Source: Candidatus Nitrospira inopinata (lineage in GTDB: Bacteria > Nitrospirota > Nitrospiria > Nitrospirales > Nitrospiraceae). Taken from it: a stretch of 32,000 nucleotides of DNA. The notes below the pieces were generated by a model. That model saw only the letters and a list, made by a program, of their open reading frames with translations. It ran no database searches and was not told where the DNA came from. Numbering within the stretch: position 1 is the first letter of the stretch; every line of letters begins with the position of its first letter. A program made the translations under genes and the position numbers. Below are positions 9,914 to 32,000 of the stretch, in pieces. The stretch spans positions 2,850,001 through 2,882,000 of the forward strand of contig NZ_LN885086.1 in the NCBI RefSeq assembly GCF_001458695.1. Reading direction: 5' to 3'.

Positions 9914-9972
9914 ATTCACCTCCATATAAGATAGAAATAGAAGAACCACGTCCCCCTGCTCTCACAAGACGA

Positions 9973-10194
9973 TCAGGTTTTCTCGTGATCCGGACCTCCC
10001 CGTATTAACAACACAGCCCCAACGATGACGTAGGCGACGACCGGAATAGCCCACAGGATCTTCGTGGTGTCAAACTCCGTGCTGCCAGACGCCGTGGTGT
10101 GAAACCCTAGGAGTAGCCATATCGGCTCATGAATAAAGAGAAAGAACACCAGCATTGCTAAACCCAGCCAATTGGTCCAACGCATGCCCATCAT
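9973..10194 (-). CDS. Small 2-TM membrane protein, unknown family (paralog of 22299..22490)
   Basis: 73 aa: MMGMRWTNWLGLAMLVFFLFIHEPIWLLL...ILWAIPVVAYVIVGAVLLIRGGPDHEKT. AAAGGAG lies upstream of ATGATGGGCATGCGTTGG. The short start is supported by the paralog, which begins with the same nucleotides. The track ORF extends to 10329. Confidence 0.7.
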   Translation of the reverse strand: MMGMRWTNWLGLAMLVFFLFIHEPIWLLLGFHTTASGSTEFDTTKILWAIPVVAYVIVGAVLLIRGGPDHEKT

Positions 10195-10366
10195 GAGATG
10201 TTCTCCTTTCATGTGATAATCAGCCCCTCTTCGAGTGCGTGGACACCGGATGGAGTAGCGTCGGGGCCGATTGTGTAATGAAACCTCCAGACCAAACCGA
10301 ACGGATGAATCCATGCCGCCTCCGAGCACAAAAACGGAGTGGCAGGGAATTGACTGGAGGTAGGAA

Positions 10367-10744
10367 TTAAATTCTAAGGACCGATGACGAGGCTATGGAG
10401 ATGGGGACAAACTCCGAGGCAGAGCTCCAGGATGAGGATTCTAACGTTGAGGAAACAGTGGATGCTGTGACAGGGCTAAGCAGTGCTGCTTTCGGATTCA
10501 CATCGGTGGTCGCCTCATGCTTGAGCTGCCGTTCCGGCGATGATACGGCGGACGGTGGGCACATGAGCATCCCGTCCATGGGACAGGCCATATGGTTTAT
10601 CTCGTCAGCCAATTGTGTTGCCTCGCCGGCCAACGACAGATCAGGCACCGTACACATTGTCCCGATGATTTGACAAAGGGCGAAGAGCAGGACCACGCTG
10701 AAGGACTGCATCTTATCTTTGACGATGATCCAACGGTTTATCAC
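10367..10744 (-). CDS. Cys/Met-rich small protein, unknown family (paralog of 29860..30264), heads the oxidase operon
   Basis: Shares CQ(I/V)IG(T/S)MC..PDLS, MACPMDGxxMCPPSxxxSPERQxK, SWSSA and the C-terminal VPISIxSSSVLRI with the second copy. The start is ambiguous: GTG 10744 gives a basic N-region (MINRWIIVKDK), and the alternative is ATG 10711. Confidence 0.7.
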   Translation of the reverse strand: MINRWIIVKDKMQSFSVVLLFALCQIIGTMCTVPDLSLAGEATQLADEINHMACPMDGMLMCPPSAVSSPERQLKHEATTDVNPKAALLSPVTASTVSSTLESSSWSSASEFVPISIASSSVLRI

Positions 10745-10801: not shown

Positions 10802-11122
10802 TTACGACACAAGAAGGTTGAAGCGAAGTGAACGGTATTCTTTATCCGCGCTGGATTTAAGATCAGCCGGTAGCGTCAACAATCGGTGTACTTCCTTACG
10901 CGTCAATCCGCTGAGGGTCGTAATTCTCGATACCGACTGCTTCTTGCCTGCGATCCTGAACTCGGTGTTCGCGACCTCCACATAGACCCGCTTGACGAGT
11001 TCAGCGCACGTTGGATGGGAAACACTGTTTCGCAAGAAGATCCTCACCAACGGTCGCCGCAGGTGACCAATAGCAGCGGAAAGTGCTTGGACTGAGCCAT
11101 GAACCTTCACAATTGTTGCCAT
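10802..11122 (-). CDS. Hypothetical protein with possible HTH (SVSRITTLSGLTRKEVHRLL)
   Basis: 106-aa ORF, co-directional with its neighbours, filling the gap between the ATPase and the Cys/Met-rich gene. No family recognised. Confidence 0.4.
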   Translation of the reverse strand: MATIVKVHGSVQALSAAIGHLRRPLVRIFLRNSVSHPTCAELVKRVYVEVANTEFRIAGKKQSVSRITTLSGLTRKEVHRLLTLPADLKSSADKEYRSLRFNLLVS

Positions 11123-14475: not shown

Positions 14476-16839
14476 TCACTTGAGGAACGCCTCCGTACTA
14501 CGTGCCCCGCCTGCACGACGTGATGCGCGTCCTCTTCCTTTAGCTTGACTGCCGATCACCGAGATCCGCTGCAGGCTCGCTCGACAACAAGGATCAGCAC
14601 CGCAGCAGCCTGGATGGAGACACCGGAATTGGAACTCGATCCATTGAATCGGCGGAGCGAATGGGCCCAGCGTCAGACTGAATCGGTGTACCGCGGCCAT
14701 TACGCCGCCAGCTGCGATCAACTCGTGCGTCGTCCACTGTTCGCCCTGATTGGTCTTCCAGGTCAGCTCACCTGGGCAGTTCGTTCTGATGCTAAGTCGA
14801 TCACCAACACGGATTGAGCGGATGGGTCTGGCGAACGTCCAGACGAGGGCATGGGGCACGATCCCATCATGGAGCGCCGCGGGTGGCTTGCGCCGGAGAG
14901 TTCCATAGATCGCCTTGACATGATCCCGAAAGAGATCATCAAATTCTGCGTCGGAGTCTGAGGCTTGATCCTCACCAAACCACCAGAACCAATCACTGCC
15001 TTCGGCGGCATAGAGGGCTTCGAAGGTTTGGGGATGACCAACCGGTGTTGCCTTCATCCGATCGAGCCATTCCCTTGCTTCGCGGAGATGATCCCACCCG
15101 CGATTTTCCTCACGCTCGCCAATCCACGTGCCCAAGTCGTTGCCTGGTGCCGAACCATTCTCGTCGATCCAGCTTGCTTCAGCCAGGTCATAGACTTTCG
15201 GCAATGCTTCGATCGGGTGAGCCGGCACTCGCCGCATCGGGTTGCCTTCAAGATACTCCCGAAACGTGACCGTGCGGATCTCCGGATCAGCGGCAAGCGC
15301 CGTATATAGGGCATGCAGGAACGGGCGGGCCTGGTGTGGATAGGCCCCCCAGGCGTTTTCGCCATCTAGAATCACGGACACGATGCGGTTCGGAGGGTCG
15401 TTGACCTGCCAGGCGAACCGCTCTTTCAATTCTTGCAGAAAGTCGGCGGCCGCCTGTGCGGGATTTGCGTAGCGGTGGTAGTGAAAGCCGATCTTGTCTG
15501 ACAAGACGGGATCGCGGAAGAAGACGGCGACACCACGGCCCAGCCCATTTTCAGCTCGATACGCTTGGCATAGGACATTTGAGTCCTGGACGTCATAGCC
15601 ATACTGCCCAGAGCGTGCCAGGACGCCGCGATCGGTCGCGATCCATCGCACGCCGGTCTCTGCGAACAGCGAGACCACCGACTGACCGACCGCTCCCTCA
15701 GCAGGCCACATCCCGGCGGGCGGATGCCCGAAGCGGTCCTCGTAGAACCGCCTGGCACGGTGGAGTTGCGCCACTGCGTCTTCTGGGTGGTGAAACCGCC
15801 GGGGATGCACTGCGCCGGGACGATCAATGGTGGCGCGATCCGAATCAACAAGCAACGGAAGGATGGGATGGTAAAACGGGGTGGTGGAAATCTCGATCTG
15901 CCTTCGCTCTTGGAGCTGTCGATGGATCGCGACGACATGGTGCAGGATCTTCAGTTGCTCGGCAACCATAGCCTCGATCTCACGAGCGGTATAGCCGGAG
16001 CCTTTTTCGACGAAGCGACGCACGGAGGAAGTCGTGCCATCAGGCAGCGCCACCTTGCCTTCTTGAAACTCTGGGCCGAACCAGGACAGGTTGAACCACA
16101 TCTGGAGATCCGCGAGATCCTGGACCGTGAACGCACGACCGTTCTGGCGCTGCTCGAACAAGGCGCGATAGCGAGGCCAGGGGAAAATCTGAGTGTGCCA
16201 GTCGGCTTCGTAAAAGGTGGCGAGGAGTTCCTCGCGTTGGGCGGTTGAAAGCCGATGCGCAGGGGTCATGGTCAGCTCGAGCGCGCGATCCGTAGCCCCG
16301 CGCTCGACATAGTCCTCGATCTGCCACAGCAGCACCGGGGTCAGGTTGATGGTGAGGTGGACCTGAGGATGCTGTTCCAGCAACGCAGCCATGGCGTAGT
16401 AATCGCGGATGGCGTGCAGCCGCACCCAAGGGAACCGATACGATCCCTGTGGTCGCTTGGAGTGCAGATTTTTGTACAATGGCTGGTGCTGATGCCAAAG
16501 GATCGCCAGATGAATCTTGGGACCTACCTGAAAGGTGAAGGGGCCAATTTCACAAGTACCGGACGGCGAACTCCCGTGCAGCCGGTACTCCACCCGATCC
16601 CCGTCCGCAAACGGCCCGACATTGATGAACCAATAGCTATTGGCATCGTGGTTGAAGTTCCACCTCCCTTCGAGCCGTTTCCTGTCCTCGGCTCCGTCCG
16701 GATGCACCACGCAAACGTTGATCCAGGCTTGCTGGCCCTCCTCGATCGGCCAGGTGCCGAACTGGAGGTTAACGTTCTGCCCCGCACTGATGTGGAACGG
16801 GAAGCGCGGCGTGTCCGACGTGAGATGCCAGATCACCAT
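14476..16839 (-). CDS. Glycoside hydrolase family 57 protein (alpha-glucan-active) with ~110-aa N-terminal extra domain
   Basis: 787 aa. LAILWHQHQPLY, WVRLHAIRDYY and LTPVLLWQIEDY are typical GH57 N-terminal motifs. Confidence 0.8.
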   Translation of the reverse strand: MVIWHLTSDTPRFPFHISAGQNVNLQFGTWPIEEGQQAWINVCVVHPDGAEDRKRLEGRWNFNHDANSYWFINVGPFADGDRVEYRLHGSSPSGTCEIGPFTFQVGPKIHLAILWHQHQPLYKNLHSKRPQGSYRFPWVRLHAIRDYYAMAALLEQHPQVHLTINLTPVLLWQIEDYVERGATDRALELTMTPAHRLSTAQREELLATFYEADWHTQIFPWPRYRALFEQRQNGRAFTVQDLADLQMWFNLSWFGPEFQEGKVALPDGTTSSVRRFVEKGSGYTAREIEAMVAEQLKILHHVVAIHRQLQERRQIEISTTPFYHPILPLLVDSDRATIDRPGAVHPRRFHHPEDAVAQLHRARRFYEDRFGHPPAGMWPAEGAVGQSVVSLFAETGVRWIATDRGVLARSGQYGYDVQDSNVLCQAYRAENGLGRGVAVFFRDPVLSDKIGFHYHRYANPAQAAADFLQELKERFAWQVNDPPNRIVSVILDGENAWGAYPHQARPFLHALYTALAADPEIRTVTFREYLEGNPMRRVPAHPIEALPKVYDLAEASWIDENGSAPGNDLGTWIGEREENRGWDHLREAREWLDRMKATPVGHPQTFEALYAAEGSDWFWWFGEDQASDSDAEFDDLFRDHVKAIYGTLRRKPPAALHDGIVPHALVWTFARPIRSIRVGDRLSIRTNCPGELTWKTNQGEQWTTHELIAAGGVMAAVHRFSLTLGPFAPPIQWIEFQFRCLHPGCCGADPCCRASLQRISVIGSQAKGRGRASRRAGGARSTEAFLK

Positions 16840-17852: not shown

Positions 17853-19685
17853 TTACACATAGGCATTAGCGGCATACTGCTGGACCATGCGGTGGGTGTT
17901 GAAGAATGACGCGTTGAATGCGATCGTATGCCGCATCACGTCGATCCAACGATCCCGCGATTGGTAGTACATCGGCAGGATCGTCCAACGCAGCTTCTGA
18001 TACAGCTCGCGCGCATCCTCCTGCTGATCGGTCCCTTGGCTCATCACCCGTGAGCCGATCGACCAACCGGTGACGCCTTCAATGTGGCCCTCCAGCCACC
18101 ATCCGTCCAGGACGCTAAGACTCGGCACGCCGTTGTGCGCCGCCTTCATGCCGGACGTCCCCGACGCTTCGAGCGGCCGCTGGGGCGTGTTGAGCCACAG
18201 ATCCACGCCGGCAGTCAGGAGCCGAGCGAGGGTCATGTCGTAGTTGTCGAGATAGTGAATCGTCACATCCGGATCGAGCTGCTTGGCCGCTTGCACGATC
18301 CGCCGGATCATGTCCTTGCCGGGCTCATCCTTGGGGTGCGCCTTGCCGGCGAATATGATCTGCAGCGGTCCTGCCTTCTTGGCTACGTCGATCAATTCAC
18401 GAGGCGCCGACACAATCAAATCGGCCCGCTTATATACGGTCGCACGGCGGGCAAACCCGATCGTGAAGGCATCCAGGCTCAACTGCTGCTGCGTGCGCTG
18501 TCTCACCTCTTCGAGCAGCCGCGCCTTGGCCTTGCTATGCGCGTCCCAGATCCCCTGATTTGGGATACTGATCGTGTAGCGCAGAGAGAACGGATCGGTT
18601 CGCCAACCTGGAATCGACCGATCGTAAAGATCCTGGAAGCTCTCGCAGGTCCAGGTGACTGAATGGACGCCGTTCGTGATCGAATCGATGACATGCGCGG
18701 GAAACATCTGTTGCGAGACTTCGCCATGCCGCTTCGCTACGCCATTGACATAGGTGCTCATGTTGAAGCCCAGGAGCGTCATGTTGAGGCGGTCCTCCCC
18801 ACCTAGCATCTGTAAGACTTCCAACGGTAGTAGGTCCCCCATGACCCGACCCACAAGGTCATACGCGAATTGATCGTGCCCGGCCGGAACCGGCGTATGG
18901 GTGGTAAAGACGCAGCGACGTCTCACCGCAGGGAAGTCCCACTCTGTGGAACCGGCCGGAGTCGACTCGCGCAGGAGCTGGAGCGTCAAGAAAGCGGCAT
19001 GCCCTTCATTCATATGGAATCGTTCTACCGCGGAATACCCAAGAGCCTGGAGCATTCGGATGCCGCCGATGCCCAGGATGATTTCTTGCGCGAGCCGGTA
19101 GCGGTCATCCCCTCCGTAGAGCCACAAGCTCAGCTCTCGGTCTTGCTGGGCATTGTCCGGGCGATTGGCATCCAACAAGAGCACTGGCACCCGGCCGCCT
19201 GTGACACCGACGAGATCGTATTGCCAAGCCTGGACGATCACGGTCCGTGCTTCGATAGTCACTGCCACTGTGGCTGGGAGGAGGTGAAGTCGGCCTCTCG
19301 GCTCCCAAGACACTGGCTGCTCGTGCTGGTTGCCCCACTCGTCCAGCTTCTGCTCAAAATATCCGTTCCAGTACAGGAGGCTAACTCCGACGGCTGGAAT
19401 TTTGAGATCGGCAAACGATCGCAGCGTATCTCCCGCCAGGACTCCCAACCCTCCGCTGTAGGTGGGCATGGCAGGATCAAGCGCCACTTCCATCGTAAAG
19501 TACGCCACACGTCGGGTGGAGGAGCCGTCCGTCCCTGCTGGCTCGAGCGGGCTCAGGTATCTCTCCGGATCGGTGAGGAAAGAGCGCCGGCACAGCTCAG
19601 AACAGAAGTAGAGCGTCCGGTCTCCATAGGTTGTAGACGACGCCTGTTCTCGGAAGACGGTCATGCCACAGACCGGATCTTTCAT
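17853..19685 (-). CDS. YHS-domain :: alpha-glucan phosphorylase (GT35, GlgP-family) fusion protein
   Basis: From ATG 19685: MKDPVCGMTVFREQASSTTYGDRTLYFCSELCRRSFLTDPERYL (YHS). The same frame continues into VAYFTMEVAL...YSGGLGVLAGDTLRSFADL...EASGTSGMKAAHNGV (PLP Lys motif). The start overlaps the upstream gene's stop (ATGA). The track ORF extends to 19847. Confidence 0.85.
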   Translation of the reverse strand: MKDPVCGMTVFREQASSTTYGDRTLYFCSELCRRSFLTDPERYLSPLEPAGTDGSSTRRVAYFTMEVALDPAMPTYSGGLGVLAGDTLRSFADLKIPAVGVSLLYWNGYFEQKLDEWGNQHEQPVSWEPRGRLHLLPATVAVTIEARTVIVQAWQYDLVGVTGGRVPVLLLDANRPDNAQQDRELSLWLYGGDDRYRLAQEIILGIGGIRMLQALGYSAVERFHMNEGHAAFLTLQLLRESTPAGSTEWDFPAVRRRCVFTTHTPVPAGHDQFAYDLVGRVMGDLLPLEVLQMLGGEDRLNMTLLGFNMSTYVNGVAKRHGEVSQQMFPAHVIDSITNGVHSVTWTCESFQDLYDRSIPGWRTDPFSLRYTISIPNQGIWDAHSKAKARLLEEVRQRTQQQLSLDAFTIGFARRATVYKRADLIVSAPRELIDVAKKAGPLQIIFAGKAHPKDEPGKDMIRRIVQAAKQLDPDVTIHYLDNYDMTLARLLTAGVDLWLNTPQRPLEASGTSGMKAAHNGVPSLSVLDGWWLEGHIEGVTGWSIGSRVMSQGTDQQEDARELYQKLRWTILPMYYQSRDRWIDVMRHTIAFNASFFNTHRMVQQYAANAYV

Positions 19686-20134
19686 ACGATATTCCCCATC
19701 TTGCGGTGCCACCACGCCAGCAGAGCAAAAATCAGCGGCGGCAGCACCAGCATCTGCGCCAGCGGAGCCAACCCGATGTTCAACCCCGGCACGAGAGGCA
19801 TACGCGGGCTGTAGGCCCACCAATGTGCGCCATAGATCGTGATCCACTCGACAGTGACGCTGATGACCGCTCCCGACAGCAGCAGTACGGCATAGCCTCG
19901 CGCTCCCGGCCGGAGATACCAGTCACGCTGTCCGATCACCAGCCAGCCGATCCGAAAGAGCAGGAGAACCACCAGGCCGTCCGCAACACTTGCCGCCGTA
20001 CACATCCACCACTCAACCTCTGCCTCGCCAGGCATGACATACAGACTGGACTGGGCCCGTTCCCAAGGATGGTTGACCACCACGGCAAGACCGAAAAGAA
20101 CGGTGAGCCGTTGATGGAGCAAGTGGCTCCACAT
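19682..20134 (-). CDS. Hypothetical ~4-TM membrane protein
   Basis: 150 aa from ATG 20134, preceded by GGAGG with a 7-nt spacer. It is Trp-rich and hydrophobic. The stop is coupled to the YHS::phosphorylase start. Confidence 0.6.
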   Translation of the reverse strand: MWSHLLHQRLTVLFGLAVVVNHPWERAQSSLYVMPGEAEVEWWMCTAASVADGLVVLLLFRIGWLVIGQRDWYLRPGARGYAVLLLSGAVISVTVEWITIYGAHWWAYSPRMPLVPGLNIGLAPLAQMLVLPPLIFALLAWWHRKMGNIV

Positions 20135-22640: not shown

Positions 22641-23184
22641 CTGACAGACAACACACTGCCGGAGCACACGCATTATTCTTCTCCTATGATTTCTATCCGG
22701 CTTCGCTGTTTCACGGCCGTGAGCTGACGTCGCTCCGACATGATTCCTTCGGGGGATGTCTTGACTTGATGCGCCTTCACGCGTTTCTGTCTCGTCTCCA
22801 GATCATGCCGGAGCCACACGCACCGGACGCCGGCCGGTGAAATGGCGACCCCTTGCTTGTGGAGTTCATTGGCCACGCGGACCGGCCCCCAAACGGGCTG
22901 ATCGATGGCCATCTGCACGATGGCGTGCTCGGTGGCGGATGACACCCGATTCTTCAAGAGTGGTTTCTTTCTTGAAATTTCTTGAAGCGCCGTTTCGCCG
23001 CCGTTCTCGTAGAGTCGCTTGAATCGATAGAAGCTATCTCGGCTATAGCCCATCAGCTGGCAAGCCTTTGACACATTGCCCAGTTGCTTCGCCAGTTCCA
23101 ACAACTTCAACTTCATCCTGATGAGCTTCTGCTCCGCCATCATGACTGCCACCCATGTGGGAAAATGCGCGGCCTGTCTGTCAG
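22641..23184 (-). mobile_element. Internally deleted IS remnant (candidate 10-bp terminal inverted repeats around a truncated transposase ORF)
   Basis: CTGACAGACA occurs at 22641-22650, and its reverse complement TGTCTGTCAG at 23175-23184. These flank ORF 22673..23152 by 22 nt on each side. Confidence 0.45.
22673..23152 (-). pseudogene. Truncated IS481-like transposase (N-terminal HTH part only, no DDE/integrase core)
   Basis: [56 protein letters not shown]...[37 protein letters not shown] matches, from memory, the N-terminus of an IS481-family transposase lineage. The ORF ends after 159 aa, before the catalytic domain would begin. Confidence 0.6.
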
Positions 23185-23444: not shown

Positions 23445-24050
23445 TCAAACGTGTCTATTTCCTTTGTGAGCACATTCACAGTTCATAAAGCCCTGTTCAC
23501 ACCCCTCACATGAGGCGAGGAAGACCTTCCGTAGAGCCTGTCTGGCCCTATGCAGGCGTACCCGTACTAGATTGGTGGTGATGCCCAAGGCCTCCGCCAC
23601 CTTTCCGCGTGAATCATCGCTGAGATCGACCCGCTGCAACACCTCGGCATACTCGGGTTTGAGCATGGGGAGGAGTTGATAAAAGCACTTGCATACTGAC
23701 TCCGTATCGACATTGGATTCGTGTGATGACTCGGGGTGAGTGTGGGCATATTCTCCCTCACCGTGACGTCTGGCCCTTTCGCCACGATAAAAATCTGCCA
23801 GCGTGCTGTTCAGCACTCGAAACAGCCATGGCACAATGCTCTCTTGCTGTTTGATCTCTGAGGCTTTGCTGAGAGCTCGGAGATAGAACTGCTGAAGCAC
23901 TTCCTCCGCAGTCTCCGCGCTCCTCATACGCCGGGCGAGAACGCGAAGGAACACTTGCCGATTCTCTACGAGCGCCATTGCGACATCGACGCTCATGGGA
24001 TTGCTGGAGTTGGGCGATGCTGGCTTGGAAAGCACCGTTGAGAACGTCAT
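23445..24050 (-). CDS. ECF sigma factor with linker CxC and C-terminal Cys-rich extension (CorE-like)
   Basis: Sigma-2 region: EEVLQQFYLRAL...WLFRVLNSTLADFYR. Sigma-4 region: EVLQRVDLSDDSRGKVAEALGITTNLVRVRLHRARQAL. A CKC motif sits in the linker, and the tail is SCEGCEQGFMNCECAHKG. ATG 24050 overlaps the cusA TGA (ATGA). The track ORF extension to 24452 lies inside cusA. Confidence 0.75.
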   Translation of the reverse strand: MTFSTVLSKPASPNSSNPMSVDVAMALVENRQVFLRVLARRMRSAETAEEVLQQFYLRALSKASEIKQQESIVPWLFRVLNSTLADFYRGERARRHGEGEYAHTHPESSHESNVDTESVCKCFYQLLPMLKPEYAEVLQRVDLSDDSRGKVAEALGITTNLVRVRLHRARQALRKVFLASCEGCEQGFMNCECAHKGNRHV

Positions 24051-27000
24051 GGGTTCAATGCTCCACGTGCTTCTTGCTCCATCTTCCTCATGTGTCCTCG
24101 CTTGTTCTCGCTCCACCACCGCCACATGACATAGACGGGCGGAATGACGAACAGCGTCAGGATCATGGCCGAGAACACCCCGCCGACCTGTGGCGCGGCG
24201 ATCCGCTTCATCACATCCGCTCCGGTTCCTGTGGCCCACATGACCGGGATCAACCCGATGACATCGACCAAGCCGATCATCGCCATGGGCCTGATGCGCT
24301 CGACTGCACCAAGCTGGACGGTGTCGATCAGATCTTGCAGCGTCGTGAGCCCACCCGCCGCCTTGCGCCGTGCGCAGGCTTCGTCCAGATAGGCCAACAT
24401 CACGGCGCTGGTCTCCGCTGCCGTGCCCACGACCGTGATCAGGCCTACCCACACGGCAATGCTCATGTTGTATCCGAGAATCGAGAGGTACCAGACGGCC
24501 CCGACTAATGAGAGCGGTACCCCCACCATCACCATGCAGGTCTTGGCCACCGACGCGAACGAGAAGTAGAAGGTGACGAAAATGATCACGAGCGTCAGCG
24601 GCACGACGAACTTCAGCCGTTCCTTCACCCGCTGCATGAATTCGTATTGGCCGGACCAGACGAGGGTATAACCAGCCGGCAGCTGAACCTTTGCCGCCAC
24701 GGTCTTCTTGAGATCCTCCACATAGCTCCCGACATCACGGCCCTTCATATCGAGGAACACGTAGCCGGCGAGCATGCCGTTTTCGTCACGGATCATGGGC
24801 GGCCCGTTGACGAAGCGTAGTGTCGCGAGTTGCGCGAGCGGCACTTGCGCGCCGGTCGGTGTATCCACGAGCACGCGCTTCAGCTTTTCAGGATCATCCC
24901 GCAACTCACGGAGATAACGGACGTTGATTGGATACCGCTCACGGCCCTCGATCGTGGTCGCGATGTTTTCGCCGCCAATGGCCGATTCGATGATCCTGCC
25001 GACGTCCATGAGTTTCAGCCCGTAGCGGGCGATCTCCTCGCGATTGATCTCGAAGTCGAGGAAATACCCGCCGGATACTCGTTCCGCATAGGCGCTTCTG
25101 GTGCCGGGAACATCCTTCAAGACCATCTCCAAATGTTTCCCGATCTCCTCGATCTGCTTCAGGTCTGGTCCGAAGATCTTGATCCCCACGGGGGTGCGGA
25201 CGCCGGTCGTGAGCATGTCGATCCGTGCTTTGATCGGCATGGTCCAGGCGTTCGTCACGCCGGGGAACTGAAGCGCGCGATCCATCTCGTCGATCAATCC
25301 TTCATAGCTGATGCCGGGTCGCCACTGGGCTTTCGGTTTCAATTCGACGACGACTTCGATCATGCTGAAGGGTGCAGGATCGGTGGAGGTTTCCGCTCGT
25401 CCGGCTTTGCCGAACACATGGTCCACTTCGGGAAAGGAGCGGAGCTTCTGGTCCATGATCTGCAACATGCGCCCGGCTTCCGTGATGGAAAGACCCGGCA
25501 AGGTCGTCGGCATGTAGAGAATCGTCCCTTCGTAGAGCGGCGGCATGAACTCCGACCCCATCTGTTGATAGAGCGGGACGACGCTGGCCATCAGCGCGAG
25601 GGCTCCGACCACGACCGCCTTTCTGTAGCGAAGAGCCAGACGCAGGAATGGCGCATAGAGCCGTTGGAGTGAGCGACTGACGGGATGTTTCTGTTCCGGA
25701 AAGATCTTGCCGCGAATGAACGTCGGCAGGCAGGCCGGGACCAAGGTGATCGCCAACACGGCACACATCGCGATGGCCAGATTATTGGTCCAGGCGAGCG
25801 GTTTGAACATCCGGCCTTCCTGTGCCTCAAGCACAAAGACCGGAATGAAGGAGATCGCAATCACGAGGACCGACGCAAAAATCGGTGGCCCCACTTCCTT
25901 GGCCGAATCGATGAGGACCTGGAGCCGTTCGCCGACTTTGCCATCCCGCTCCCATTCCTCCAACCGTTTGTGGGCGTTGTCCACCATGACGATCGCCGCA
26001 TCCACCATGTCGCCAATCGCCACGATGATGCCGCCGAGCGACATGATGTTGATGCCGATATTCATGAGATACATGGGAATGAAGGCGAGCAACACCGCAA
26101 TCGGCAGGGTGAGGATCGGCACGATCGCGGATCGGACGTGGAGCAGGAATGCAACAATCAACAGCCCGGTCACGAGCAACTCCTCCAGCAGACTTTCATT
26201 GGCCGTGGCGATGGATTCGTGGATCAGGTCGCTCCGGTCATAGACTGGCACGACCTTCACGCCCTTCGGTATGGAGGGCTCAAGTTCCTTGAGCTTGGCT
26301 TTCACCCGCTCGATGACCGTGAGGGCGTTCTCTCCGAAGCGCATGATCACGATGCCGCCCGCTACTTCCCCCTGGCCGTTCAATTCCACGAGGCCCCGCC
26401 GCATATCAGGCCCCAGCCGAACAGTCGCGACATCGCGCAAGAGAACCGGCGTCCCGTTCTCATTGACGCCAACGGCGATCTTTTCGATGTCTTCGGTCTT
26501 CTTCAGGTAGCCACGCCCTCGAATGACGTATTCGATGCCGGAAAATTCCACGACTCGCCCGCCGACATCGTTATTACTGTCACGAATCGTTTCAATGATG
26601 GAAGGGAGGGAGAGGCGATAGGCCGAAACCTTTGTCGGGTCTAAGTTGATTTGGTACTGGCGGACAAAGCCGCCGATGCTGGCCACTTCTGCGACGCCTT
26701 CCACGGCTCGCAGCCAGTACTGCAGATACCAATCTTGGAAGCTGCGCAGGGCAGCAAGATCATGCTGCCCGGTCTCATCGACCAGGGCATACTGAAAGAT
26801 CCAGCCCACGCCCGTTGCGTCTGGACCGAGCTGCGGGGTGACCCCTTCCGGCATGCGTCCAGAGAGTTGGCTCAACCGTTCAAGGACCCGCGACCGCGCC
26901 CAATAGATGTCCGTGCCGTCTTTGAAGAGAATATAGACATAGGAATAGCCGAAATCGGAGAAGCCACGGACGACCGTCACGTTGGGAGCCGACAGGAGCG

Positions 27001-27214
27001 CTGTGACGATGGGATAGGTAATTTGGTCTTCGACCAGATCTGGCGAACGGCCCTGCCAGGTCGTGTAGACGATGACTTGCGTATCGGAGATATCGGGCAG
27101 TGCGTCGATCGGTGTCTGCCACATGGCCCAGAGCCCCACGGCAGACAGCGAGAAGACTAACAGGAAGACGATGAAGCGGTGTCTTGCACTGTATTCGATA
27201 ATCCGTTCAACCAT
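24047..27214 (-). CDS. cusA: Heavy-metal efflux RND permease, CusA type (Cu(I)/Ag(I))
   Basis: 1055 aa, closely collinear with E. coli CusA as I recall it (PIDALPDISDTQVIVYT..., GPDATGVGWIFQYAL, AIGDMVDAAIVMVDNAHKRLEEW). The three Met-cluster contexts are present: ILYMPTTLPG, APFSMIEVV, ARIDMLTTG. Confidence 0.95.
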   Translation of the reverse strand: MVERIIEYSARHRFIVFLLVFSLSAVGLWAMWQTPIDALPDISDTQVIVYTTWQGRSPDLVEDQITYPIVTALLSAPNVTVVRGFSDFGYSYVYILFKDGTDIYWARSRVLERLSQLSGRMPEGVTPQLGPDATGVGWIFQYALVDETGQHDLAALRSFQDWYLQYWLRAVEGVAEVASIGGFVRQYQINLDPTKVSAYRLSLPSIIETIRDSNNDVGGRVVEFSGIEYVIRGRGYLKKTEDIEKIAVGVNENGTPVLLRDVATVRLGPDMRRGLVELNGQGEVAGGIVIMRFGENALTVIERVKAKLKELEPSIPKGVKVVPVYDRSDLIHESIATANESLLEELLVTGLLIVAFLLHVRSAIVPILTLPIAVLLAFIPMYLMNIGINIMSLGGIIVAIGDMVDAAIVMVDNAHKRLEEWERDGKVGERLQVLIDSAKEVGPPIFASVLVIAISFIPVFVLEAQEGRMFKPLAWTNNLAIAMCAVLAITLVPACLPTFIRGKIFPEQKHPVSRSLQRLYAPFLRLALRYRKAVVVGALALMASVVPLYQQMGSEFMPPLYEGTILYMPTTLPGLSITEAGRMLQIMDQKLRSFPEVDHVFGKAGRAETSTDPAPFSMIEVVVELKPKAQWRPGISYEGLIDEMDRALQFPGVTNAWTMPIKARIDMLTTGVRTPVGIKIFGPDLKQIEEIGKHLEMVLKDVPGTRSAYAERVSGGYFLDFEINREEIARYGLKLMDVGRIIESAIGGENIATTIEGRERYPINVRYLRELRDDPEKLKRVLVDTPTGAQVPLAQLATLRFVNGPPMIRDENGMLAGYVFLDMKGRDVGSYVEDLKKTVAAKVQLPAGYTLVWSGQYEFMQRVKERLKFVVPLTLVIIFVTFYFSFASVAKTCMVMVGVPLSLVGAVWYLSILGYNMSIAVWVGLITVVGTAAETSAVMLAYLDEACARRKAAGGLTTLQDLIDTVQLGAVERIRPMAMIGLVDVIGLIPVMWATGTGADVMKRIAAPQVGGVFSAMILTLFVIPPVYVMWRWWSENKRGHMRKMEQEARGALNP

Positions 27215-27220
27215 GATCGG

Positions 27221-28474
27221 TCACTCACTCATCTTCATGCCGGACATCCCACCCATACTCTCGACGACCGACTTCAGCCGGCTTTCGCTGTCGATTAAGA
27301 AGTTGGCCGAGGTGACGATATGCTCGCCTTCTTTCAGACCCGTCAGAACTTCAGACCACTCGCCGGTCTTGACGCCGGTTTTGATCAGGCGCGGCTCGAG
27401 CTTCCCGCCGCCCAGATGGAGAAAGACGACCTGCTTTTGTCCCGATTCGATGATGGCTTCTTGCGGGATCGCCAGACGAGTGCCCAAATTCACCTGCAAT
27501 TCCACGTTGGCATACATGTCCGGTTTCAGTTTCTCGTCGGCATTGTCGAGCTCAAACCGCACCTTGGCCGTGCGGGTCTTCGGGTCCATCGTCGGATAGA
27601 TGAAACCCACCTGTCCGGTCAGGACCGTGCTCGGATCATAGGAGAGGGTGACGGCGGCTTTTTGCCCGGCCTTCACGAACGAAAGTTCATATTCATAGAT
27701 GTCCGCCAGAATCCAGACACGCGAGAGGTTCACGATCGTGTAGAGTTCCTGACCAGGATCCACATGGGCGCCTGTGAGAACTTCTTTCTTGATGACAGTG
27801 CCGGTGATGGGCGAATGGATTGGGAGCGTCTTCATCACCTTGCCGGTCTTTTCGAGTTTCCGGATGTGAGAATCCGTGATATCCCAAAGTTCAAAACGAC
27901 GCCTGGTCGCTTCCAGCAGATCCTGTGAGCCCCGAGCCACTTCCGGGAATTCGCTCTCACCCATTTGCCTGCGGCCTTGTAACGCCAGAAGATATTCCTC
28001 CTGACTGGCCACCAAATCGGGACTGTAGATTGTGAAGAGCGCCTGGCCTTTCTTCACATGATCCCCCAGTGCGCTGACGAACAGCTCCTCAATCCACCCG
28101 TGAAATTTGATGGTGACTTTCGCGACCCTCCGTTCATCGACGGCCACACGACCGACAGTCCGGATCAGTTTCTCCAGCGGTCGCCGTGTCACCTGGCCGT
28201 ATTTCACCCCGATCGTTTGCAGCCGTTCCGGAGGGATGGTCACGATGCCGGGAACGCTTTCCGGCTCACGGGCAGACTCGGTTCCGACGGACTGTGTCGC
28301 CGGAGCCGATTTCTTCTTTTCCTTCTGTTTCATCCCCGGCATCTCCATGCCGGCCATTTCACCCTGCCCGGACTCCGCCTGCGGAAGGATCGCTTGGTGC
28401 GACAGCAGCCAGGTAAAGCCGCCTGCCATGAAAACGATGAGCACGCTGGCCTTGATGAAACTGCGGCGGCTCAT
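27221..28474 (-). CDS. cusB: RND efflux periplasmic adaptor (membrane fusion protein), CusB-like, Met-rich termini
   Basis: 417 aa with a signal/TM segment, then GEMAGMEMPGMKQ. It has HlyD-type adaptor architecture and the C-terminus MGGMSGMKMSE. Its ATG overlaps the cusC TGA (ATGA at 28474-28471). Confidence 0.85.
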   Translation of the reverse strand: MSRRSFIKASVLIVFMAGGFTWLLSHQAILPQAESGQGEMAGMEMPGMKQKEKKKSAPATQSVGTESAREPESVPGIVTIPPERLQTIGVKYGQVTRRPLEKLIRTVGRVAVDERRVAKVTIKFHGWIEELFVSALGDHVKKGQALFTIYSPDLVASQEEYLLALQGRRQMGESEFPEVARGSQDLLEATRRRFELWDITDSHIRKLEKTGKVMKTLPIHSPITGTVIKKEVLTGAHVDPGQELYTIVNLSRVWILADIYEYELSFVKAGQKAAVTLSYDPSTVLTGQVGFIYPTMDPKTRTAKVRFELDNADEKLKPDMYANVELQVNLGTRLAIPQEAIIESGQKQVVFLHLGGGKLEPRLIKTGVKTGEWSEVLTGLKEGEHIVTSANFLIDSESRLKSVVESMGGMSGMKMSE

Positions 28475-29775
28475 GATCCCGGTTTCCTTTCTGACCCATC
28501 CAACGGCCCACCGGTGACGGCCTCGAGGCGGGCCAGCGCTTTCTCGTGATTGACGATCTCGCTGTGCAGTTCGAGTTGGCTGTCCTGCAGTGTTAGCAGA
28601 CTGTTGAGCAGCGTCAGAAAATCTACTTTGCCCACGGCATAGCCCGCCTGCGCCGCCTGCAGGCCCAGCGTCGCTTGGGGAATAATGGCGTCGCGCAGAA
28701 TCGTGATCAGCCGTTCGGCTCGCTGCGCTTGGACGAAGCCGTCCTTGACTTGAAACAAAAGATCCTGTCTGGCGGCGGCAAAGTCTTCCCGAGCACCTTC
28801 AAGCCCTGCCAATGCTTCTCGCACGCCTTGTTTCTGTTTCGTTTCATAGAACAGCGGAATCTTGATGCCCACCATGATCTGATACCCGTTGTCATTGATC
28901 TTGTCGTTACGGATCCCCAGGGCCGTCACATCGAAATCGGGGTAGTACTGCCGTTTGGCGAGCGAGACGGATCGTTCCGAGCGATCGATGCCTTTTGCCG
29001 TTGCGAGCAGCGCGGGCGAGAATTCGTTCGCCCGCCGGTTGAGTTCTTGGAGCGGGAGCGTCAGGAGAGTGCTGTGCACTTCTTCCGGGGTGCCCAACGG
29101 GCCATCCGGTGGGCGATTCAGGAGCCGATTGATGGCGGCGTGAAGGCTCTCCTTCTGCTGGTCGAGGACGGCCAGCCGATCGAGGACACGTGAAATCTCC
29201 ACTTGGGCCCGGAACACATCCTGTTGGGCGGCTTGACCCACGCTGTACCGGGCTTTGGCTGTCTTCTCGAACTGTGTCAGCAGCGTCTTGTTCCTCTCCA
29301 CGATGTCGATGCTCTTATGGACGAAGTGGAGGTCGTAATAGACCTGCTTGAGCGCGGCAAGGAGCCTCAATCTGGTGGCGTTGTATTCTTGCTCCAACCG
29401 TTCGGCATCGCTTTGCGCCACTTCACCCTTCAGCTTGAGTTTGCCCGGAAACGGGATCTCTTGGCCGATTCCGTACATCACTCCCTCCACGACGGGAGGC
29501 ACCATCGGCATGCGTTGATACCCCAACTGGAGGCGGGGATCTGGCAAGGTCTGCACTTGAGGCACGACTGCCTGAGCAGATTCCCATCGGTGGCGGGTTG
29601 CCTTGATCTCGGGATTGGCGACATCGAGTTCTCGAATGAGACCGGAAAGATCCAATCGGCGTTCAGTCGCTTCATCGGCCGCACCAGCCGGCCAGGGCAG
29701 AAGCAGGAGTGTCAGCGCAATCAGCCACGCAGCTCGTACTCGCGAGAACGAAAGAGGGATATGAGTTTGTCTCAT
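28471..29775 (-). CDS. cusC: TolC-family outer membrane efflux protein, CusC-like
   Basis: The preferred start ATG 29775 follows GGAGGTG (MRQTHIPLSFSRVRAAWLIALTLLLLPWPAGA signal). Two OEP-type repeats are present. The track ORF extends to 29829. Confidence 0.85.
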   Translation of the reverse strand: MRQTHIPLSFSRVRAAWLIALTLLLLPWPAGAADEATERRLDLSGLIRELDVANPEIKATRHRWESAQAVVPQVQTLPDPRLQLGYQRMPMVPPVVEGVMYGIGQEIPFPGKLKLKGEVAQSDAERLEQEYNATRLRLLAALKQVYYDLHFVHKSIDIVERNKTLLTQFEKTAKARYSVGQAAQQDVFRAQVEISRVLDRLAVLDQQKESLHAAINRLLNRPPDGPLGTPEEVHSTLLTLPLQELNRRANEFSPALLATAKGIDRSERSVSLAKRQYYPDFDVTALGIRNDKINDNGYQIMVGIKIPLFYETKQKQGVREALAGLEGAREDFAAARQDLLFQVKDGFVQAQRAERLITILRDAIIPQATLGLQAAQAGYAVGKVDFLTLLNSLLTLQDSQLELHSEIVNHEKALARLEAVTGGPLDGSERKPGS

Positions 29776-29859
29776 GGCACACCTCCGCGCAGTAAAAGAC
29801 ATCACCGCCCGCTCAGCGTCAGCAGCCAAGCAGGGGACGACGATACTGGAGGTGTGGGA

Positions 29860-30228
29860 TCAGATTCGAAGAACCGAGGAAGAACTTATGGAGATGGGAA
29901 CAAGGGAATAGGCGCTACTCCAAGACTCAATCATCACAAGAAAGACACCGGCGGGAGCTTCGGCACGACTGACGAGAGACGGAACAGGATCAACTACCAC
30001 GACCATGCTGTTTTTTATCTGACGCTCAGGCGACGCGGTGAGCGACGGCGGGCACATGATGGTCCCGTCCATCGGACAGGCCATACTCCCTTCCACCAGG
30101 ATCGCCGTTTCTTCTGCTTCAGACAGATCGGGCAAGGCGCACATTGATCCAATCACCTGACAGAAGGTGAAAACAATGGCAATCGCAACGAATCGGAAAG
30201 CTGGCGGTGAACTCATTGACAATGACAT
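29860..30228 (-). CDS. Cys/Met-rich small protein, unknown family (paralog of 10367..10744), heads the cusCBA operon
   Basis: ...FRFVAIAIVFTFCQVIGSMCALPDLSEAEE...SMACPMDGTIMCPPSLTASPERQIK...ESWSSAYSLVPISISSSSVLRI. The start is ambiguous among ATG 30228, ATG 30216 and the track's TTG 30264. Confidence 0.7.
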   Translation of the reverse strand: MSLSMSSPPAFRFVAIAIVFTFCQVIGSMCALPDLSEAEETAILVEGSMACPMDGTIMCPPSLTASPERQIKNSMVVVVDPVPSLVSRAEAPAGVFLVMIESWSSAYSLVPISISSSSVLRI

Positions 30229-30302
30229 AACGTTAGTATGTAACACCTCTGGCCAACAGGTCAAGTAGGCAACTCAGCACAGGTTCCTTCATCTGCCTGT
30301 GC
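30229..30302 (-). promoter_or_regulatory. Candidate promoter and upstream inverted repeat for the Cys/Met-protein-cusCBA operon
   Basis: On the minus strand: TTGACC (30264-30259), 18-nt spacer, CATACT (30240-30235), 6 nt, then ATG 30228, which would give a leaderless transcript. Upstream lies the inverted repeat GCACAGG-N12-CCTGTGC (30277-30302). Confidence 0.3.
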
Positions 30303-30563: not shown

Positions 30564-32000
30564 TTAAGACACGGCTCCTCTCCAACCGACTCGTAACCCG
30601 TTCGCTACTGCCAAGAGCTCGCTCAGCTCATGGATGAGAACCACCAGGGCGACGCTGAGGAAACCGCTAACTGCCAGCGGAATAAGCATCGCAAGAAGCA
30701 GGAGAGAAAAGGTGATATTCTCCCAACTTATTCGCCTCGCTGTCTGTCCCAACCGCAGCACCTCAGGCACCTTCGCGAGGTCATCGGCCATTAGTGCCAC
30801 ATCTGCCGCCTCGATTGCCGCATCGCTTCCCGCTGCCCCCATGGCCACGCCGCAGGTTGCAGCCGCCAGAGCCGGCGCATCGTTGATCCCGTCGCCGACC
30901 ATCAGAACCGGCCCATAGCAACGTTCCAACTCCTTGACCGCTTCAACCTTGTCCTCCGGCTTGAGGTCCGCCAGGCTGTCATCAAGGCCGAGGCTCTCCG
31001 CGACAGTTCGGGCCGTGCTCGCGTTATCTCCGGTTAGCATGACAGTCCGGATCCCCAAGCGGCGGAGATCGTCGATGACATCCCTCGCCCCGTCGCGGAC
31101 ACGATCCTGTAAGATGAGCAGGCCGTACAGGTTGTGATTTGCCCCAACGAGAACGACCGTTTTTCCTTGGGCTTGCTGTGTCTGCACCTTCTCTCGAACG
31201 GCGTCCAAGGGGATCCCAAGCTCCTCGAACAGCGCCGGACTGCCGACATACCACCTCATGCCATCAGAAGACACCGCGGTAGCTCCCACGCCGGTCAGGG
31301 CCTCAAACTCCTGCATGGACCTCAGAGCAAGCCCTTCAGCCCGTGCCTTCTCAAGGACGGCCCGCGCCAGCGGATGTTCGGAACCATGCTCGATGCCGGC
31401 CGCGACCGCGAGCAATTCGCCTGGTGAGCCGTTGAGAGTGATGAGGTCCGTGACAACCGGCTTGCCGGCAGTGAGGGTGCCCGTTTTATCGAAGGCTGCC
31501 ACGCGGATACTCCCGAGATGCTCCAGATGCACGCCGCCCTTGATGAGAATGCCATGCTTGCCTGCCCAGCCAATCGCGGCGGCGGTCGCCACGGGCGTCG
31601 ACATCACCAGCGCGCATGGCGCAGCCGCGACTAAGAGCACCACCGCGCGCTCAGCCCAATCCTCCAGTGGCAAACCGAAAAGCCAGGGCACAAGGAGAAA
31701 CCCGACCGACACCAGCAACACAGCGGGGCTGTAGCGGCGACCGAAGCGCTCGATCCACTGCTGAGCTTGCCCCTTGCGCTCCTGCGCCGCTTCCACCAGA
31801 TGAATAATCTTGGCCAGGGTGTTGTCTTGAAACGACGCGGTCGCCTCGATCTCCAGGAGGCCTTGTCGGTTGAGCGTTCCGGCAAAGACTTTCATGCCGG
31901 GGACCTTATCGACCGGAATGGATTCACCGGTGACTGCCGCTTCGTCCAGGCTGGAATTTCCGATCCGAATCACTCCGTCGGTCGGAATGGTCTCGCCTGG
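30564..32000 (-). CDS. P1B-type heavy-metal-translocating ATPase, 5' end beyond the right window edge
   Basis: The frame is open to the window end (…PGETIPTDGVIRIGNSSLDEAAVTGESIPV). Motifs present: TGES, AAPCALVMSTP (an APC variant of CPx), DKTGTLT, GDGINDAPALA, and HELSELLAVANGLR in the last TM. Confidence 0.9.
   Translation of the reverse strand, partial: PGETIPTDGVIRIGNSSLDEAAVTGESIPVDKVPGMKVFAGTLNRQGLLEIEATASFQDNTLAKIIHLVEAAQERKGQAQQWIERFGRRYSPAVLLVSVGFLLVPWLFGLPLEDWAERAVVLLVAAAPCALVMSTPVATAAAIGWAGKHGILIKGGVHLEHLGSIRVAAFDKTGTLTAGKPVVTDLITLNGSPGELLAVAAGIEHGSEHPLARAVLEKARAEGLALRSMQEFEALTGVGATAVSSDGMRWYVGSPALFEELGIPLDAVREKVQTQQAQGKTVVLVGANHNLYGLLILQDRVRDGARDVIDDLRRLGIRTVMLTGDNASTARTVAESLGLDDSLADLKPEDKVEAVKELERCYGPVLMVGDGINDAPALAAATCGVAMGAAGSDAAIEAADVALMADDLAKVPEVLRLGQTARRISWENITFSLLLLAMLIPLAVSGFLSVALVVLIHELSELLAVANGLRVGWRGAVS

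Follow-up and report, generated by a model that had tools for sequence, protein, structure and literature searches.

A Nitrospiraceae leader family with a stop-adjacent helix that pairs the Shine-Dalgarno sequence of copper operons: a putative CutF-like regulator with a different C-terminus

A 32,000-nucleotide stretch of the Candidatus Nitrospira inopinata genome (contig NZ_LN885086.1, positions 2,850,001 to 2,882,000; hereafter the window, with positions counted from its first letter) holds two copies of a small gene for a Cys/Met-rich protein, one of which (copy 2) heads a cusCBA efflux operon while its paralog (copy 1) heads a multicopper oxidase (MCO) operon. This leader gene is real and under selection at the protein level, and immediately behind its stop codon lies a covarying RNA helix that pairs an anti-Shine-Dalgarno (anti-SD) segment with the cusC Shine-Dalgarno (SD) sequence. 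We favour, as probably correct but with ample room for doubt, the reading that the leader is a cis-acting translational regulator similar to CutF of Rhodobacter capsulatus, with a different C-terminal module. The resemblance to CutF is one of design, not of sequence or stall motif. An earlier note on this DNA had described an unrecognised protein family and suggested either a periplasmic metallochaperone or a regulator of the pump. The family and its operon position hold up, and of the two suggested roles the regulator is favoured; the chaperone and a proposed C-terminal docking or sorting function are not supported. Neither the RNA element nor the link to CutF figured in that note. The cassette is also more specific than that first reading, consisting of a Nitrospiraceae-restricted leader together with a stop-adjacent, SD-sequestering helix.

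The two leader genes, the promoter candidate and the RNA elements are located as follows (MFE, minimum free energy fold).
29860..30216 (-): leader ORF (open reading frame) copy 2, 118 aa from ATG 30216, stop TGA 29860-29862
10367..10711 (-): leader ORF copy 1, 114 aa with ATG 10711 as start, in a frame that is open back to GTG 10744
30235..30264 (-): candidate sigma-70-like promoter directly 5' of the leader ORF, TTGACC, 18 nt, CATACT, by consensus match only
29844..29856 (-): 5' arm of the long-range helix, anti-SD CACACCTCC(AGTA), starting 4 nt after the stop codon
29800..29842 (-): inner hairpin within the long-range helix, predicted by MFE, on which a weak terminator-like site was called
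29778..29794 (-): 3' arm of the long-range helix, holding the cusC SD GGAGGTGTG (29778-29786)
10283..10362 (-): post-stop element of copy 1, predicted by MFE, in which TACCTCCAGTCAA (10350-10362) pairs with TTGGTCTGGAGGT (10283-10295) around an inner hairpin at 10315-10343

The frame of copy 2 is open over 29860..30264 (-), giving 134 aa when counted from its first TTG (30264), with an alternative ATG at 30227. Its start is most likely ATG 30216, judged by the family alignment, in which homologs are mostly 118-124 aa long, although translation may instead begin at 30227. The resulting 118 aa are near the ~120 aa claimed before, and the other structural claims of the earlier note were also confirmed. 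The paralog it placed at 10367..10744 (-) aligns with copy 2 at 49% identity over 110 aa (BLASTP, E 6e-30), every shared block that it named is present in both copies, and the gap to cusC is 84 nt, the most plausible cusC start being ATG 29775, preceded by GGAGGTG. A promoter pattern scan found one site against 0.5 expected by chance, and TTGAC(A)...AGACT-related motifs occur 5' of the ORF in many homologous loci. The promoter-like -10 hexamer (30225..30235, -) ends 8 nt 5' of ATG 30227, so the leader mRNA may be leaderless or nearly so here. ORFs antisense to the two copies (29203..30147, + and 10395..10673, +) were rejected, as they are not conserved between the copies.

Complementarity is exact between the anti-SD CACACCTCC (29848..29856) and GGAGGTGTG (29778..29786); the latter ends 2 nt before the cusC ATG, and its GGAGG core lies 5 nt before it. 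A 99-nt segment that reaches from the stop codon to codon 4 of cusC folds at -39.1 kcal/mol (z -2.3), with CACACCUCC pairing with GGAGGUGUG. The post-stop motif reads TGA-tcc-CACACCTCCAGT in copy 2 and TAA-ttcc-TACCTCCAGT in copy 1, and it is equally placed in nearly all of the 81 copies, ending in VLRI (one in VLRV), that a census collected from 80 Nitrospiraceae loci. In 53 of these copies the genes next after the leader are CusC-CusB-CusA (CusC-type loci), and these were used to examine the helix. RNAalifold on a plain MAFFT alignment recovers the core anti-SD/SD helix only; the inner hairpin, which this alignment puts one column out of register between locus subtypes, was specified by hand for pair counting, together giving a 10-pair outer helix and a 9-pair hairpin. 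With this structure 84% of the cells are paired, a share that falls to 35-50% on shifting the 3' partner by 1-3 columns. The covariation score is 0.242 (at most 0.116 for the shifted versions), a value that 0 of 500 column shuffles reach. Next to the SD, one flanking pair switches between A-U and G-C (29 vs 10) and the other from G-C to A-U, G-U or C-G, while 7 of the 9 hairpin pairs have loci altered on both sides with pairing kept. Folded singly, 38 of 52 CusC-type loci have the SD paired with the first 20 nt past the stop (mean probability 0.74); the count of 14 unsequestered loci is inflated, since the regular expression used to find the SD picked the GGAGG of the inner hairpin in L005, L008, L030, L045 and a fifth locus, and the 14 include four of these five. 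Computation shows the anti-SD/SD helix to lie against the stop codon and to covary. An Rfam scan of the spacer (E up to 1) returned no family. The exact 9-mer ACCTCCAGT occurs three times in the window, after both leaders and within a GH57 gene, and 0 of 100 shuffles reach three; the third occurrence, at 16761..16769 (-) in the 5' end of the GH57 gene, is probably due to chance.

The stop codon itself is also biased. Among the leaders, TGA occurs 64 times, TAA 17 times and TAG never, and the next base is T in 81 of 81, counts that are not independent because the copies are related. For long ORFs in the same loci the background is 22% TAG and 17% T after the stop. The bias in stop codon and next base points to selection on the termination context.

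The family is real, taxonomically narrow and unannotated. A first database search returned 300 proteins, all unnamed or "hypothetical" and none with a Pfam domain, and the only named sources among them were Nitrospira/Nitrospirota. HMMER with the family profile matched just 76 representatives out of 1.84 billion cluster representatives, and a scan of one genome per species gave the 80 loci, all Nitrospira/Nitrospiraceae, including cultured N. moscoviensis. Pfam and NCBIfam scans of both copies (E up to 10) gave no family, including CusF, CzcI-like and DUF2946, in line with the earlier description of the protein as unrecognised. Ten divergent members gave nothing usable in Pfam or NCBIfam, and a profile search of PDB sequences (E up to 10) found no relative. 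A divergent branch is represented by two members ~35-40% identical; a search from member P0187 of this branch yielded just one further protein. Directly 5' of the most divergent leaders, on the same strand, lies a DsbA/Thioredoxin_4 gene (L082 3767-4396, L083 5282-5929), a neighbour that fits a role for periplasmic disulfide formation but could be coincidental.

Conservation is concentrated in three segments of the protein.
30139..30201 (-): N-terminal membrane helix or export signal, residues 6-26, predicted by AlphaFold2; F16, C19, Q20, M25 and C26 invariant, G23 nearly so
30013..30084 (-): Cys/Met block M45-A-C47-P-M49-D-G-x-x-M54-C55-P-P...S-P-E-R-Q-x-K68; C47, P48, M49, C55 and P56 invariant
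29863..29925 (-): C-terminal segment S98...V106-P107-I-S-I-x-S-S-S-V-L-R-I118, conserved up to the stop codon

Over 64 members, F16, C19, Q20, M25, C26, C47, P48, M49, C55, P56, S58, R65, V106, P107 and R117 are invariant, and the terminal seven residues, SSSVLRI, nearly so. VLRI forms the C-terminal end of 165 of 195 family proteins, and the most divergent representatives, alike in little else of the C-terminal half, still end in (V/I)LRI. A Nei-Gojobori-type profile of the ratio of nonsynonymous to synonymous differences (pN/pS) over 78 genes gives 0.26 for the FCQVIGTMC helix segment, 0.28 for the MACPMDG..MCPPS block and 0.26 for the last ten residues, as against 0.75-0.88, or near-neutral drift, for the 30-residue linker. 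The final codons vary synonymously (GTC/GTT; CTT/CTC/CTG; CGA/CGG/AGG/AGA/CGC; ATC/ATT), which indicates that the constraint on V-L-R-I acts on the peptide and not on the RNA.

The alignment also bears out the four conserved Cys and several Met noted before. They are arranged as C19-x6-C26 and C47-x7-C55, accompanied by M25, M45, M49 and M54, and the Cys/Met block is presumably a soft-metal (Cu(I)/Ag(I)) site. The spacing of the third and fourth Cys is 8 in 148 of 148 members, and from the fourth Cys to the last residue it is 63 in 119 of 148 (80%; range 59-66), despite the drifting linker. An AlphaFold2 model from the 64-sequence alignment has a mean predicted local distance difference test (pLDDT) score of 54, with helix 6-26 the only confident segment, pLDDT below 50 at residues 57-104 and 109-118, and no folded domain past the helix. 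Basic residues precede the hydrophobic stretch in protein order and an acidic stretch follows it, a pattern that would fit an N-in/C-out signal anchor or a signal peptide. The lipoprotein reading was discarded, the residue preceding C19 being F, L or V and not G, A or S, as was that of a precursor of a ribosomally synthesized and post-translationally modified peptide (RiPP) or a chalkophore, for which modification enzymes are not present nearby. The C-terminal segment is presumed to be a ribosome-tunnel or pausing module. The earlier note had seen a docking or sorting element there; because the invariant end adjoins the helix that masks the SD of the next gene, it is better read as a ribosome-proximal module of a cis-acting leader peptide, as in CutF, CruR and SilD (PMC9973294, PMC9426467).

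The genes behind the two leaders are the following.
28471..29775 (-): cusC-like outer-membrane factor, Pfam OEP, NCBIfam TolC/NodT, signal-peptide-like N-terminus, ATG 29775
27221..28474 (-): cusB-like adaptor, Pfam HlyD_D23, with NCBIfam CusB and CzcB scoring about equally
24047..27214 (-): cusA-like resistance-nodulation-division (RND) pump, Pfam ACR_tran 755 bits, transmembrane helix 4 (TM4) motif AIGDMVDAAIVMVDNAH
23445..24050 (-): extracytoplasmic function (ECF) sigma factor, ATG overlapping the cusA stop (ATGA), CxC linker motif, Cys-rich C-terminal tail
9973..10212 (-): two-helix membrane protein of 79 aa that separates copy 1 from the oxidase, no family match
7751..9949 (-): multicopper oxidase of the copy-1 operon, Pfam Cu-oxidase domains 1-3, NCBIfam CueO/PhsA-like

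The copy 2 operon is gapless, OEP, HlyD, ACR_tran and the ECF sigma following one another with no space for cusF, and the absence of cusF from the locus had been correctly noted. The TM4 motif AIGDMVDAAIVMVDNAH, by comparison with E. coli CusA, and the Met-rich N-terminus of the adaptor appear to fit a Cu/Ag-type pump rather than a CzcA-type one. Copy 1 does head an MCO operon, as claimed, although the 79-aa membrane protein intervenes before the oxidase. Proteins of this 79-aa type also occur at L005 7786-8019, L006 16175-16366 and L001 1169-1601, and elsewhere directly after cusA or before another cusC.

Besides the 53 CusC-CusB-CusA cases, the gene next after the leader encodes the small two-helix membrane protein, usually then the oxidase, in 11 copies, a CopA-like oxidase with CopB in 9, a second leader copy in 2 and something else in 2, and 4 copies lie at a contig end. 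Flanking DNA suffices for 77 copies; in 73 of them the leader is the first gene of such an operon, and in two it stands before a second leader copy. The census, of a kind that the earlier note had proposed, finds the leader systematically at the head of RND and MCO operons. Spacers from leader to next gene are mostly 83-99 nt, and members of the divergent branch retain the leader-OEP-CusB order. Tandem leaders on the same strand, ~0.6-1.5 kb apart before one operon, are seen in L010 (stops 3336, 4507), L016 (5937, 6524), L038 (10337, 10997) and L043 (2286, 3808). The first codons of the downstream gene, GTG AAA CGA T.. ... GTT CAT ATC, are common to a CopA-type oxidase locus and CusC-type loci (L029 10331-10450 compared with L021 and L042), so that leader, spacer and next-gene start seem to have moved together as a cassette.

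How does this cassette compare with known systems? CutF is the small, signal-peptide-bearing first gene product of cutFOG in R. capsulatus; it has CxxxC and two further Cys and a C-terminal proline-rich stall motif, and a stem-loop shields the SD of cutO (PMC9973294; bioRxiv 10.1101/2025.02.05.636593). It acts in cis only and is degraded upon export (PMC9973294). Together with CruR, CopL and SilD, CutF belongs to a set of small, exported, Cys-containing proteins whose genes come first in MCO or OEP/RND operons and which work via a C-terminal stall and an SD-shielding stem-loop (PMC9973294; bioRxiv 10.1101/2025.02.05.636593), and a published survey found CutF-like genes to be commonest before OEP/RND genes and oxidases (PMC9973294). 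The Nitrospiraceae leader shares with CutF its place as the small first gene of a copper operon (before a multicopper oxidase, as copy 1 is here), a predicted N-terminal export signal, four Cys in two pairs of which the first is spaced by 7 in both, a conserved C-terminal module adjacent to the stop, an SD-shielding stem-loop and a spacer of less than 100 nt. At 118 aa with a predicted helix at 6-26, it falls within the CutF-like range of less than 150 aa with an N-terminal export segment. Its distance from metal motif to C-terminus is conserved (63 in 119/148), it is a first gene on the same strand as the metal genes that follow after a short spacer (73/77), and the shielding stem-loop is found computationally (SD paired in the MFE, 38/52 loci).

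The differences from CutF are just as clear. There is no detectable sequence similarity, the hydrophobic helix bears invariant Cys, Gln and Met, and the family does not reach beyond Nitrospiraceae. In place of CutF's CxxxC, the metal motif reads Cx7C with Met; neither CxxxC nor CXXC is found in the leader, which has Cx6C and Cx7C instead. A CutF-like C-terminal motif is likewise absent, the C-terminus (...VPISISSSSVLRI) holding a single Pro, and with VLRI-stop in place of PPP no dependence on elongation factor P (EF-P) is expected. The published CutF filter asks for PP within the last 15 residues and the leader family would fail it, though a few divergent members carry PP in their last 15-20 residues. 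PF11162 (DUF2946) did not match the window copies or the ten divergent members at E up to 10, and hhalign of the family against a 31-sequence SilD alignment (one of 29 published clusters) gave a probability of 7.9% covering only the hydrophobic N-terminus. SilD itself misses Pfam PF11162, so the leader may yet be a very remote homolog.

SilD/CusD from Cupriavidus metallidurans (silDCBA, pMOL30) is close in other respects: it heads an operon of outer-membrane factor, membrane fusion protein and RND pump as copy 2 does, is 131 aa long, has a signal-like helix with a conserved Gln and ends in ...PPPRPLAILHCCFRI, that is, FRI-stop where the leader family has LRI-stop. This common ...(F/L)RI-stop ending is a lead, not a test. 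The pMOL30 silD-silC spacer also folds a helix from the stop codon to the silC SD (z -3.3). SilD differs in its PPP(R)P ~11 residues before the end and its LCxxHC and HCC His/Cys motifs. CruR of Bordetella pertussis, a DUF2946 upstream ORF (uORF), is likewise a small exported uORF product with a Cys motif and a C-terminal arrest motif near the stop (PMC9426467), and in it the CXXC-to-RAPP spacing is conserved and functionally required (PMC9426467). It differs in the CXXC and RAPP motifs themselves, in Rho-dependent termination with copper relieving the stall, and in heading a copper-repressed TonB-dependent importer (PMC9426467). SecM, MifM and VemP resemble the leader in having an N-terminal signal or membrane segment, a variable linker that acts like a ruler and a C-terminal arrest sequence in the tunnel, with the stalled ribosome opening an SD-sequestering helix of the next gene; they regulate Sec/YidC components, however, and sense translocation force rather than metals, with unrelated arrest motifs. 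The leader lacks the marks of such Sec/YidC monitors (SecM, MifM, VemP, Apd), as cusC or an oxidase lies downstream and no RAPP/RAGP-type motif is present. CzcI (of czcNICBA) and CusF are small periplasmic proteins of heavy-metal RND loci, and CzcI stands just before czcC, but neither shows a sequence or profile match or is known with a stop-adjacent anti-SD, and CusF is a folded beta-barrel where the leader protein is predicted to be disordered. For the CusF (PF11604), CzcI, CopK, CopZ and MerP types as a group, we found no profile match and no predicted folded domain.

According to the mechanism that we propose, a small, co-translationally exported leader peptide would control, in cis, translation of the operon behind it (cusCBA for copy 2, the oxidase operon for its paralog). 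The N-terminal hydrophobic helix would bring the nascent chain to the membrane. With the ribosome at the stop codon, the Cys/Met block of the chain, at its fixed distance of 63 residues from the C-terminus, would already be periplasmic, and the last ~20 conserved residues (...VPISIxSSSVLRI) would fill the exit tunnel. There the ribosome would melt the CACACCTCC helix and free the cusC SD, allowing cusC to be translated. Its dwell time would be set by nascent-chain Cys and Met holding Cu(I)/Ag(I) versus disulfides pulling the chain out, and the outcome would be pump synthesis raised by periplasmic copper. By analogy with CutF we infer that the chain is exported, that it binds metal, that the ribosome pauses at VLRI-stop and which way the regulation runs. 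The coupling step stands on firmer ground. A ribosome with a stop codon in the A site holds and unwinds roughly a dozen downstream nt, and this region covers the start of the anti-SD arm, so translation of the leader should free the cusC SD; translational coupling from leader to cusC is strongly indicated. By established estimates, ~63 residues is about the span of tunnel plus translocon, which would place the Cys/Met block just at the periplasm as the ribosome meets the stop. It is this combination of an export helix, ligands at a fixed distance, a linker fixed in length and free in sequence, and ~20 conserved tunnel residues that leads us to propose sensing by dwell time.

A bolder form of the proposal, possible in our view but to be held tentatively, is that the leader is an arrest peptide of a new sort, one that needs no prolines, acts at termination and senses copper or thiol redox state across the membrane via its four Cys, just emerged in the periplasm, and so sets translation of copper RND pumps and oxidases. 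VLRI would then hold the ribosome at a stop codon read by release factor 2 (RF2), consistent with only TGA or TAA being used and always being followed by T. The family would represent a second solution to the problem that CutF solves, independently evolved or diverged beyond recognition, in the form of a portable cassette that comprises leader, spacer and the opening codons of the gene behind and has been moved before at least three operon types.

Several observations weigh against leader-mediated regulation as we describe it. T after the stop is an efficient-termination context in E. coli, and alone gives no hint of stalling. VLRI-stop is like no characterised arrest motif, and the polyproline or RAPP that CutF and CruR require is absent. 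A mere export signal would not usually have invariant Cys in its membrane helix. In about one fifth of CusC-type loci the anti-SD has decayed and the post-stop segment leaves the SD unsequestered, and of the two divergent-branch loci, whose spacer folds are ambiguous, one has its SD masked by another upstream segment. Copy 1 and other oxidase-type loci keep a GGAGGT partner with no start codon after it, the next gene's own SD lying ~70 nt further on in copy 1, so that the mechanism there may be vestigial or different. Plain translational coupling without sensing, finally, explains the RNA data equally well.

That last point also serves the proposal that the leader encodes a stable, membrane-anchored or secreted soft-metal-binding protein (a chaperone, a sponge or an accessory replacing CusF), with the RNA helix merely coupling translation. 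Four invariant Cys with several Met, a constant place in copper operons and the lack of cusF in the operon all agree with such a protein; its invariant helix residues could be a contact surface or a metal site, and disordered periplasmic metal sponges such as SilE and PcoE do exist. Yet no folded domain is predicted by AlphaFold2, and the same cassette stands before three different machineries (an RND pump, a membrane protein with an MCO, and CopA-CopB). The gene always comes first and never elsewhere in the operon, the linker is kept in length and not in sequence, and the strongest conservation is in the last four residues at the stop. CutF, which is built alike, is degraded on export and acts only in cis (PMC9973294). 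We regard a stable protein as a possible but somewhat unlikely explanation, and for the first two of these reasons, predicted disorder of the extracytoplasmic part and three unrelated operon types, the metallochaperone suggested earlier is disfavoured, whereas "regulator of the pump" is the alternative that the evidence favours. It is improbable, too, that the leader is a highly divergent true member by descent of the DUF2946/CutF-CruR-SilD group that has lost its polyproline motif. Architecture and operon positions are the same (PMC9973294), the ...PPLAILHCCFRI ending of SilD-type proteins is close to the leader's ...VPISISSSSVLRI, CutF and the leader family agree in a spacing of 7 for the first Cys pair, and the few divergent members with PP near the end and the failure of SilD to match PF11162 point the same way. 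Against descent stand the lack of a PF11162 match at E up to 10, the hhalign probability of 7.9% to SilD and metal motifs that differ (Cx6C/Cx7C versus CxxxC or CXXC).

Two further explanations seem very improbable to us. In one, the inner hairpin and a U-rich tail form a transcription attenuator, with leader translation controlling read-through by RNA polymerase. A terminator-like site was called on this hairpin, whose pairs covary strongly (7/9) and which has T-rich stretches 3' of it in many loci, and CruR acts by transcription termination (PMC9426467). The called stem, however, has 5 pairs and a poor T-run, an equal number of sites is expected by chance, the hairpin begins ~20 nt past the stop, beyond the reach of a terminating ribosome, and the element that abuts the stop is the anti-SD and not the hairpin. 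In the other, given just as little weight, the leader serves the Cys-rich ECF sigma factor encoded within the operon or close to it, as a membrane anti-sigma factor or as a partner in signalling. Such a sigma closes the operon in the window, and the same type lies 0.1-3 kb from the leader in at least 15 loci, ending 116 nt before it in N. moscoviensis. But only ~5-8 residues precede the helix, too few for a cytoplasmic sigma-binding domain, and the sigma gene is on either strand at variable distance and is missing from most loci; ECF44/CorE-like sigmas, moreover, sense metal themselves and need no anti-sigma factor (PMC4937300).

The sigma factor at 23445..24050 has C-K-C between sigma-2 and sigma-4.2 and the C-terminal tail SCEGCEQGFMNCEC; CxC and a Cys-rich C-terminus are two hallmarks of metal-sensing CorE-like (ECF44) sigma factors (PMC4937300). 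In other loci, a sigma factor matching the one in the window sits 5' of the leader on either strand. Right after the sigma gene, 22673..23152 (-) encodes a helix-turn-helix fragment resembling a transposase N-terminus, and the genes downstream of cusA are arranged otherwise than at the 99%-identical genome locus L001, which suggests local rearrangement. Just 5' of copy 2, 30564..31973 (-) encodes a P1B-type (heavy-metal P-type) ATPase scoring 423 bits with TIGR01512 (Zn/Cd/Pb) versus 320 with TIGR01511 (copper), so the island may not be purely copper. Just 5' of copy 1, a 106-aa ORF at 10802..11122 (-) matches positions 1-87 of the 268-position DUF6502 profile and looks like a truncated gene; DUF6502 also neighbours a Ca/Mg-type ATPase in L001. 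A 664-aa ORF at 17853..19847 (-), adjoining the GH57 enzyme, has an N-terminal YHS domain and a carbohydrate-phosphorylase-like region. YHS domains bind metal and usually occur as part of copper ATPases.

That a nascent exported peptide can sense periplasmic copper was described only between 2022 and 2025, and solely for DUF2946 proteins that stall on polyproline. If our reading is true, the CutF principle would reach a phylum from which it had no earlier report, independent of prolines and EF-P, and surveys filtered by homology or by PP would have missed the leader family. VLRI-stop with RF2-type stop codons is a candidate termination-linked pausing sequence for ribosome biochemistry, and the conserved spacer is a candidate cis-regulatory RNA absent from Rfam. 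The label of leader or regulatory ORF could be given to about 300 "hypothetical protein" clusters. In wastewater, drinking water and soil, the main nitrite oxidisers and comammox organisms are Nitrospira; copper is both required and toxic there, and the leader would bear on how their copper pumps and oxidases get switched on.

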